Source: Escherichia phage NHEP29
Sequence record: PQ511150.1
Reading direction: 5' to 3' (one strand)
DNA length: 64,000 nt
A program made the translations under genes and the position numbers. This document shows, in pieces, positions 22,099 through 22,795 of this stretch. Numbering within the stretch: the first letter of the stretch is position 1; every line of letters begins with the position of its first letter. The notes below the pieces were generated by a model, which was not told the DNA's origin, ran no database searches, and saw only the letters and a list, made by a program, of their open reading frames with translations.

Positions 22099-22316
22099 GT
22101 TACCTTTAAGCAGTATTCTTCTACATGCTGTTTACGACCTTTCTTATCAATAAAGGTATATTCAACGAATGTTCCAATGTAGTCTTTATCTACATCATGT
22201 AGACTATTAATTGGACATTTAGTACGACAAATGCGTTCCCATTGACGAATAATTACTGTCTTATTCTTTGGGTCATATGGATGTGGATAGTGTATATTCA
22301 TAACAATGGTTCCCAA
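22089..22316 (-). CDS. hypothetical protein
   Basis: 75-aa ORF. Confidence 0.5.
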   Translation of the reverse strand: MGTIVMNIHYPHPYDPKNKTVIIRQWERICRTKCPINSLHDVDKDYIGTFVEYTFIDKKGRKQHVEEYCLKVTWL

Positions 22317-22795
22317 TCAACAATCACAATTTCTAGTTTAGTGGAATATGTATCTAAAATCTCTTCGATGACATCCCAGTTTCCACCACCGATACCTGCA
22401 CCAATTCTTGGCATATAAATTACAGGCTTTGTTATCTTATTCTTTCCGAATTTATTTAATTCTATTATACAATTCATTAAAGCAGAGTACTCAAAATTAG
22501 GTCCCGGCTCAAACTGTGTATAAAGATTAAAGCAATAAGCTTTATGAGTCTTAAAATATTTTTCATAAACTGAATAAGTCCCGAGTTTAGACTCATCTCC
22601 ATATACAGTTTGAAGTTTATCGGCTTCCAGAATTTTTGGATAAGCCTTTGCTAATTGTCCTGCTACACCAGCGCCCATTGTATGAAAACAATTACACCCA
22701 TGAGCAATATTATTACCTTTAGAAAACAGGGCGACAATATCGCCCTTGATATAGTTTTTAATCACTTGCTGCAAGTCCTCTAGTATAAGAGTCAA
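22298..22795 (-). CDS. macro-domain protein (predicted ADP-ribose binding/processing)
   Basis: 165 aa; HGCNCFHTMGAGVAGQL and PRIGAGIGGGNW resemble macro-domain N-x6-GGGV and diphosphate-binding loops. Confidence 0.6.
   Translation of the reverse strand: MTLILEDLQQVIKNYIKGDIVALFSKGNNIAHGCNCFHTMGAGVAGQLAKAYPKILEADKLQTVYGDESKLGTYSVYEKYFKTHKAYCFNLYTQFEPGPNFEYSALMNCIIELNKFGKNKITKPVIYMPRIGAGIGGGNWDVIEEILDTYSTKLEIVIVDWEPLL

Follow-up and report, generated by a model that had tools for sequence, protein, structure and literature searches.

Phage T4 withstands DarTG2 even when it lacks both adfA and adfN, which led to the prediction of a further factor (PMC11825919). The product of the T4 gene tk.4 fills that gap. 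In a HIDEN-SEQ transposon-sequencing screen, tk.4 was the single significant match on a DarTG2 host; a clean knockout of tk.4 cost T4 its DarTG2 resistance, and the gene now bears the name adfM, for anti-DarT factor Macrodomain (bioRxiv 10.1101/2025.11.20.689424). The authors of that study inferred that the protein enzymatically removes ADP-ribose from DNA (bioRxiv 10.1101/2025.11.20.689424). A second AdfM, gp104 of phage PhiKZ, resembles Tk.4 in being a phage macrodomain that stands alone, acts against DarTG2, and keeps the asparagine of loop 1; it strips DarT2-made ADP-ribose from DNA in vitro, and its activity is reduced by the N23A mutation (PMC13309987). SCO6735 of Streptomyces coelicolor, a macrodomain in which Gln85 replaces a lysine, cleaves DarT-made, thymidine-linked ADP-ribose off DNA and rescues cells from the toxin. 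A water-mediated mechanism was proposed for this enzyme, which is inactive as the Q85A mutant, nearly so as N27S, and impaired as G128E (PMC9411070). Here, we analyze a macrodomain gene in a 64,000-nucleotide stretch of DNA from Escherichia phage NHEP29 (sequence record PQ511150.1), which is referred to as the window. The gene occupies positions 22298..22765 on the minus strand (GTG start, TGA stop at 22298-22300) and encodes a protein of 155 amino acids; we assign it as the Mosigvirus ortholog of T4 tk.4 (adfM).

The protein encoded in the window is 83% identical to T4 Tk.4 over 155/155 amino acids without a gap. It shares with Tk.4 its length, its position between vs and tk.3, and the residues H22, N25, Q84, G122, and G124 (these and all other residue numbers of the phage protein refer to the 155-amino-acid form, unless stated otherwise). 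The gene order rI-rI.1-tk-three small open reading frames (ORFs; tk.1..3)-tk.4-vs-vs.1-regB is that of T4, and both this order and the placement of tk.4 between vs and tk.3 are identical in T4, APCEc01, the Shigella phage Sf24, and the window. High identity over the full length, together with the conserved position, places the gene in the orthologous group of T4 Tk.4/AdfM. Because identity to T4 is 53-97% for the neighboring proteins, the locus is best described as plain orthology with vertical synteny rather than as an insertion. The 6-kilobase (kb) neighborhood is 97-98% identical to genomes of Mosigvirus (RB69-like Tevenvirinae), including APCEc01, PTK, and KMB38, and we classify the window on this sequence basis as that of a Mosigvirus, an RB69-like T-even phage. 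One difference between the two orthologs concerns residue 126, which is Gly in the window and Lys in T4, and the DarTG2 phenotype is on record for T4 alone.

The protein is a stand-alone macrodomain of the ALC1-like class, which includes human TARG1, DarG, SCO6735, and yeast Poa1p. It matches Pfam PF01661 with 29.2 bits against a gathering cut-off of 22 (E=9.8e-07; profile positions 2-117/118) and PHROG 335 with E=2.3e-66. A family profile built from 59 sequences, which was used for both the PDB search and AlphaFold2, matches the macrodomains of Bacteroides BT1257 (1.4e-17), TARG1 (1e-16), SCO6735 (4e-14), Mycobacterium tuberculosis DarG (1.8e-13), and Poa1p (4e-13). AlphaFold2 predicted the three-layer α/β/α macro fold of the PF01661 superfamily with a predicted local distance difference test score (pLDDT) of 95.9 and a predicted template modeling score (pTM) of 0.91. 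The closest neighbors in both structure and profile are members of the ALC1-like class and not macrodomains of the MacroD, viral, or PARG types. The original prediction, made from the letters of the window, had called a macro-domain protein, and the Pfam match above threshold, the PDB matches, and the high-confidence fold bear this out. It had also named two grounds for abandoning the call, a missing macro fold and the loss of the Gly-rich loops on alignment with true macrodomains; the fold is predicted confidently, and the loops are kept. The family itself comprises 18,079 clusters (50% identity) at E<=1e-3, or 1,132 at <=1e-30, and is found in phages of many hosts.

The active site was analyzed over 261 relatives, which comprise 120 homologues and 141 further cluster representatives. 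Loop 1 (HGCNCFHTMGAGVAGQL; 22652..22702, minus strand) contains H22, N25 (codon 22691-22693), and G31-A-G33, and loop 2 (PRIGAGIGGGNW; 22376..22411, minus strand), the diphosphate-binding loop, contains P119 and G122-A-G124. Both segments had been quoted in the original prediction as macro-domain loops and do occur in the translation, at residues 32-48 and 129-140 in the numbering of a longer, 165-amino-acid ORF. These loops are highly conserved: G33 is present in 260/261 relatives, N25, G122, and G124 in 259/261 each, and H22 in 253/261, with P119 also near-invariant. H22 and N25 are equivalent to His24 and Asn27 of SCO6735, and Gly122 and Gly124 to its Gly126 and Gly128. Three residues, Q84, D49, and Y82, are invariant (261/261). 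Gln84 (codon 22514..22516, minus strand), which ends an invariant N-x-Y-T-Q motif, takes the place of the lysine that is catalytic in TARG1 (K84) and DarG (K80), because in the profile alignment the motif (NlYtQ) falls on YLITK of TARG1 and NMIGQ of BT1257. This register is backed by hmmsearch alignments and a published structure-based alignment; a low-confidence hhalign alignment to PhiKZ gp104 moves it by one residue. TARG1 uses a Lys84/Asp125 dyad, whereas the phage protein has Q84 and G126, the latter at a variable position whose consensus is Ala.

With Q84 and the loop-1 residue N25, the protein has the catalytic residues of the Gln-type subclass of SCO6735 and BT1257, and by analogy the Tk.4 family is probably closer in mechanism to SCO6735 than to DarG or the DarG-like AdfM of PhiKZ. 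The resemblance to SCO6735 and BT1257 has limits, however. Identity to the phage protein is only ~30%, and Lys34, the DNA-contacting residue of loop 1 in SCO6735, is replaced by Ala32 (of the 261 relatives, 179 have A, 51 have S, and 23 have G at this site). The long mobile loop of the subclass, which exceeds that of DarG and TARG1 by ~5 residues, is also absent: BT1257 has a 6-residue insertion after the Gln relative to the phage profile, to which TARG1 aligns gap-free. Conversely, invariant Asp49 and Tyr82 distinguish the phage family from SCO6735 and BT1257. The Asp49 codon is located at 22619-22621 of the window; Poa1p has the Asp in common with the phage protein, and BT1257 has Tyr there. 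Because SCO6735 has been reported to lack an acid/base residue in its active site, Asp49 could be a catalytic or structural residue specific to the phage family. Tk.4-type AdfM may belong to a Gln-type family that is very large, mainly viral, and marked by invariant N-x-Y-T-Q and Asp49 and by a short loop, and that is neither DarG-like nor typical of SCO6735.

These comparisons lead us to a reading to which we assign a probability of about 0.7, namely that the Tk.4/AdfM ortholog in the window guards phage DNA from DarTG2 by SCO6735-like hydrolysis of thymidine-linked ADP-ribose. In the proposed mechanism, the 155-amino-acid macrodomain would be expressed from the tk-vs gene block in the infected cell, and its main role would be to shield replicating phage DNA from the DarTG2 toxin-antitoxin defence of the host. 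DarT2 places ADP-ribose on thymidines of single-stranded DNA; the phage macrodomain would bind this ADP-ribose with its two Gly-rich loops and hydrolyze the thymidine-ribose bond, thereby acting as an orphan antitoxin. Invariant Gln84, braced by Asn25, would set the distal ribose for attack by water at a site that has no lysine. The reversal of DarT action, which the original prediction had raised, agrees with the published genetics of the syntenic, 83%-identical T4 ortholog. We infer that a Tk.4-type protein acts by hydrolysis, that DNA is its substrate, and that the Mosigvirus and T4 copies behave alike.

Several points weigh against this reading. The functional evidence comes from one preprint on the T4 ortholog and consists of a plaque and fitness phenotype only (bioRxiv 10.1101/2025.11.20.689424); our search of the literature on tk.4 function turned up that preprint alone. 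Both SCO6735 and DarG also inhibit DarT through direct binding (PMC9411070), and by analogy protection by the phage protein could be partly non-enzymatic, through binding of DarT2. The lysine of DarG and TARG1, Lys34 of SCO6735, and the mobile loop that is 5-6 residues longer are all missing in the phage protein, and the mechanism of SCO6735 is carried over to it as an analogy, not a demonstration. The very large size of the family and its many phage hosts suggest that its substrate range may be wider than the products of DarT2. Finally, the long-standing database name of the protein, which is based on homology, is "phosphatase (A1pp motif)".

Comparison of tk.4 alleles reveals a pattern that the neighboring genes do not share. 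The Tk.4 proteins of T4 and Sf24 are only 58% identical, whereas identity is 95-100% for the products of tk.1-3, vs, vs.1, and regB. At the DNA level, identity between these two phages falls to 37-70% from approximately nucleotide 100 of tk.4 to the stop codon and then returns to 92-98% (the loci compared are 22298-22765 of the window, 6923-7390 of the T4 locus L002, and 1501-1980 of the Sf24 locus L003). Matches in a phage collection at E<=1e-40 number 151 records at 95-99% identity, 5 at 90-95%, 224 at 80-90%, 19 at 60-80%, and 459 at <60%. The allele in the window is of the T4 type, which is the genetically tested one. Such apparent cassette-like allelic replacement of tk.4 fits conflict-driven selection, and we count it, as the mark of an arms race, in favor of protection from DarTG2.

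The database name raises an alternative that we consider improbable: the protein could be a metabolite-clearing enzyme, an ADP-ribose-1''-phosphate phosphatase or O-acetyl-ADP-ribose deacetylase resembling Poa1p, that clears by-products of RNA repair or of sirtuins. Poa1p, which acts on a free metabolite, is indeed a close structural neighbor with which the phage protein has Asp49 in common. However, the "phosphatase" names are all transfers by homology, and we found no assay of any Tk.4-type protein. DarTG2 sensitivity is the one phenotype recorded for the ortholog, and cassette-like allelic replacement is easier to square with a conflict gene than with a housekeeping gene. Moreover, to our knowledge T-even phages do not encode the Tpt1/KptA step that yields Appr>p.

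The protein might instead be a broader eraser of ADP-ribosylation, for which the DarTG2 effect would be one facet of an activity against the marks that the phage enzymes Alt, ModA, and ModB or other host ADP-ribosyltransferase toxins place on protein or RNA. The close structural relatives TARG1 and SCO6735 also act on protein-linked ADP-ribose, the family is far wider than the known distribution of DarT2, and ~41% of myoviruses have macrodomains, often alongside ADP-ribosyltransferases (PMC9503650). Even so, we doubt this explanation. T-even phages are reported to remain sensitive to CmdTAC, an mRNA ADP-ribosyltransferase, so that Tk.4 provides no rescue there. T4 Alt and Mod modify arginine, and we know of no macrodomain that cleaves arginine-linked ADP-ribose. 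In addition, tk.4 is dispensable on a plain K-12 host (bioRxiv 10.1101/2025.11.20.689424). Far less credible than protection from DarTG2 is hydrolysis of ADP-ribose-derived messengers such as the gcADPR of Thoeris, the second idea of the original prediction, for which we found nothing in favor: the corresponding structural match belongs to a lower tier than the glycohydrolases and phosphatases of conjugated ADP-ribose that form the top tier, we found no literature linking Tk.4 to Thoeris, and the anti-Thoeris proteins known to us are sponges of unrelated fold.

Two named macrodomains related to DarTG2 were considered as possible identities and set aside. The protein is not a DarG: against the DarG equivalog NCBIfam NF048014, which has a cut-off of 250 bits, its score is 31.8 bits, and the match of this 155-amino-acid protein covers profile positions 4-146/338 only, which is the macro part. 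The C-terminal DarT-binding domain and the catalytic lysine are absent (DarG structures 5M3I, 5M31, and 7OMU have Lys80 where the phage protein has Gln), and the adjacent genes are vs and tk.3 rather than darT. PhiKZ gp104, on the other hand, is of the DarG type: it matches M. tuberculosis DarG with E=9e-25, and its FPTK..W motif carries the lysine. Membership of gp104 and Tk.4 in the same family was rejected, with a BLASTP match of 23 residues at E=6e-04 and an hhalign probability of 96% that we regard as marginal. In terms of sequence, the AdfM proteins of PhiKZ and T4 look like separate acquisitions under one name.

The maximal ORF at this locus extends over 22298..22795 on the minus strand and encodes 165 amino acids from a TTG start. 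The original prediction had reported this ORF, with no strand, and the ORF is present as described; its first ten codons, however, are unlikely to belong to the protein. A plus-strand reading is ruled out by stop codons throughout that strand across the interval. Translation very probably begins at the GTG at 22765-22763, because five observations converge on it. First, the TTG ORF shares 38 nucleotides with the upstream vs gene. Second, alignments to homologues of <=83% identity begin only at residue 11 of the 165-amino-acid ORF. Third, the identical gene of phage APCEc01 has a length of 468 nucleotides in RefSeq. Fourth, T4 Tk.4 has 155 amino acids, and the ATG of its gene aligns codon-for-codon with the GTG of the window. 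Fifth, a GAGGA Shine-Dalgarno sequence, as read from the sequence, lies 10 nucleotides upstream of the GTG (22776..22780, minus strand), and in T4 the same GAGGA stands 11 nucleotides ahead of the tk.4 ATG. The sequence ahead of the TTG contains no Shine-Dalgarno motif, and the TTG start at 22795 was dropped in favor of the GTG. The ten extra codons (22766..22795, minus strand), which overlap the 3' end of vs, are thus probably untranslated.

The flanking genes overlap the macrodomain gene on both sides. Upstream, vs (22758..23105, minus strand) encodes a valyl-tRNA synthetase modifier 67% identical to T4 Vs, and the end of vs, stop codon included, runs 8 nucleotides into the macrodomain gene, compared with 4 nucleotides in T4. 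Downstream, tk.3 (22089..22301, minus strand; ATG at 22301) encodes a protein 97% identical to T4 Tk.3 and shares an ATGA overlap with the macrodomain stop. In tk.3 and the last ~60 nucleotides of tk.4 (22089-22360), DNA identity between the window and T4 is 95-98%, as compared with 70-85% in neighboring genes, a pattern suggestive of recent exchange between Mosigvirus and Tequatrovirus lineages. Just downstream of tk.3, DNA identity between the window and Sf24 is 73-88%, and T4 compared with either of them reaches only 25-43%. Here, at the position of T4 tk.2, lies a Cys-rich ORF of 70 amino acids (MVMSQTKILTGAKCEKCEW...CYCSNKGC; 21886-22098, minus strand) that gave no match to T4 Tk.2 by BLASTP; Sf24 gp239 is annotated at the corresponding position. 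The region of the Cys-rich ORF is a further small piece of mosaicism within the tk block.

A terminator scan flagged an 8-base-pair GC-rich hairpin, AGGGCGAU-AUU-GUCGCCCU, with a U-rich run behind it (22728-22746, minus strand), that lies 17 nucleotides inside the macrodomain coding sequence and lies just upstream of the point at which T4 and Sf24 diverge. The hairpin is identical in T4, Sf24, and APCEc01 and thus offers no covariation by which to judge it. An outer helix that pairs the GAGGA Shine-Dalgarno sequence with the U-run is predicted in the window and APCEc01 (z=-2.5) but not in T4 or Sf24, and for that reason we do not claim a helix that sequesters the Shine-Dalgarno sequence. A scan for promoters and terminators between 20.5 and 26.5 kb returned 14 promoter-like sites versus 19.9 in shuffled sequences, that is, fewer than in the shuffles, and is uninformative on early or middle timing. 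Elsewhere in the window, tRNA-Arg(TCT) and tRNA-Met(CAT) stand side by side (37150-37304, minus strand), a small cluster of the kind found in T-even phages.

The gene in the window is already known through T4 tk.4/adfM, to which our analysis makes two modest additions, one on Gln-type chemistry and one on the allelic cassette. The T4 gene has been annotated as an A1pp/macro protein for some twenty years. It has had a named function as the anti-DarTG2 factor AdfM since late 2025, and the present case confirms that an initial reading of raw sequence can single out a genuine counter-defence gene. The replacement of Lys by Gln matters to the biochemistry of AdfM. Because the lysine is absent, no K-to-A catalytic mutant can be designed for Tk.4-type AdfM, and Q84A or N25A would be the fitting mutants. 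For phage-therapy genomics, the presence of tk.4 and its allele type could predict the performance of T-even phages on DarTG2-carrying E. coli. We offer as speculation, and with somewhat more doubt than conviction, that T-even phages and chimalliviruses recruited two mechanistically different macrodomains for one job and that swaps of tk.4 (58% versus 83% alleles) match the eraser to variants of DarT2 or to other nucleic-acid ADP-ribosyltransferases. If such matching occurs, allele identity would predict differences in host range.
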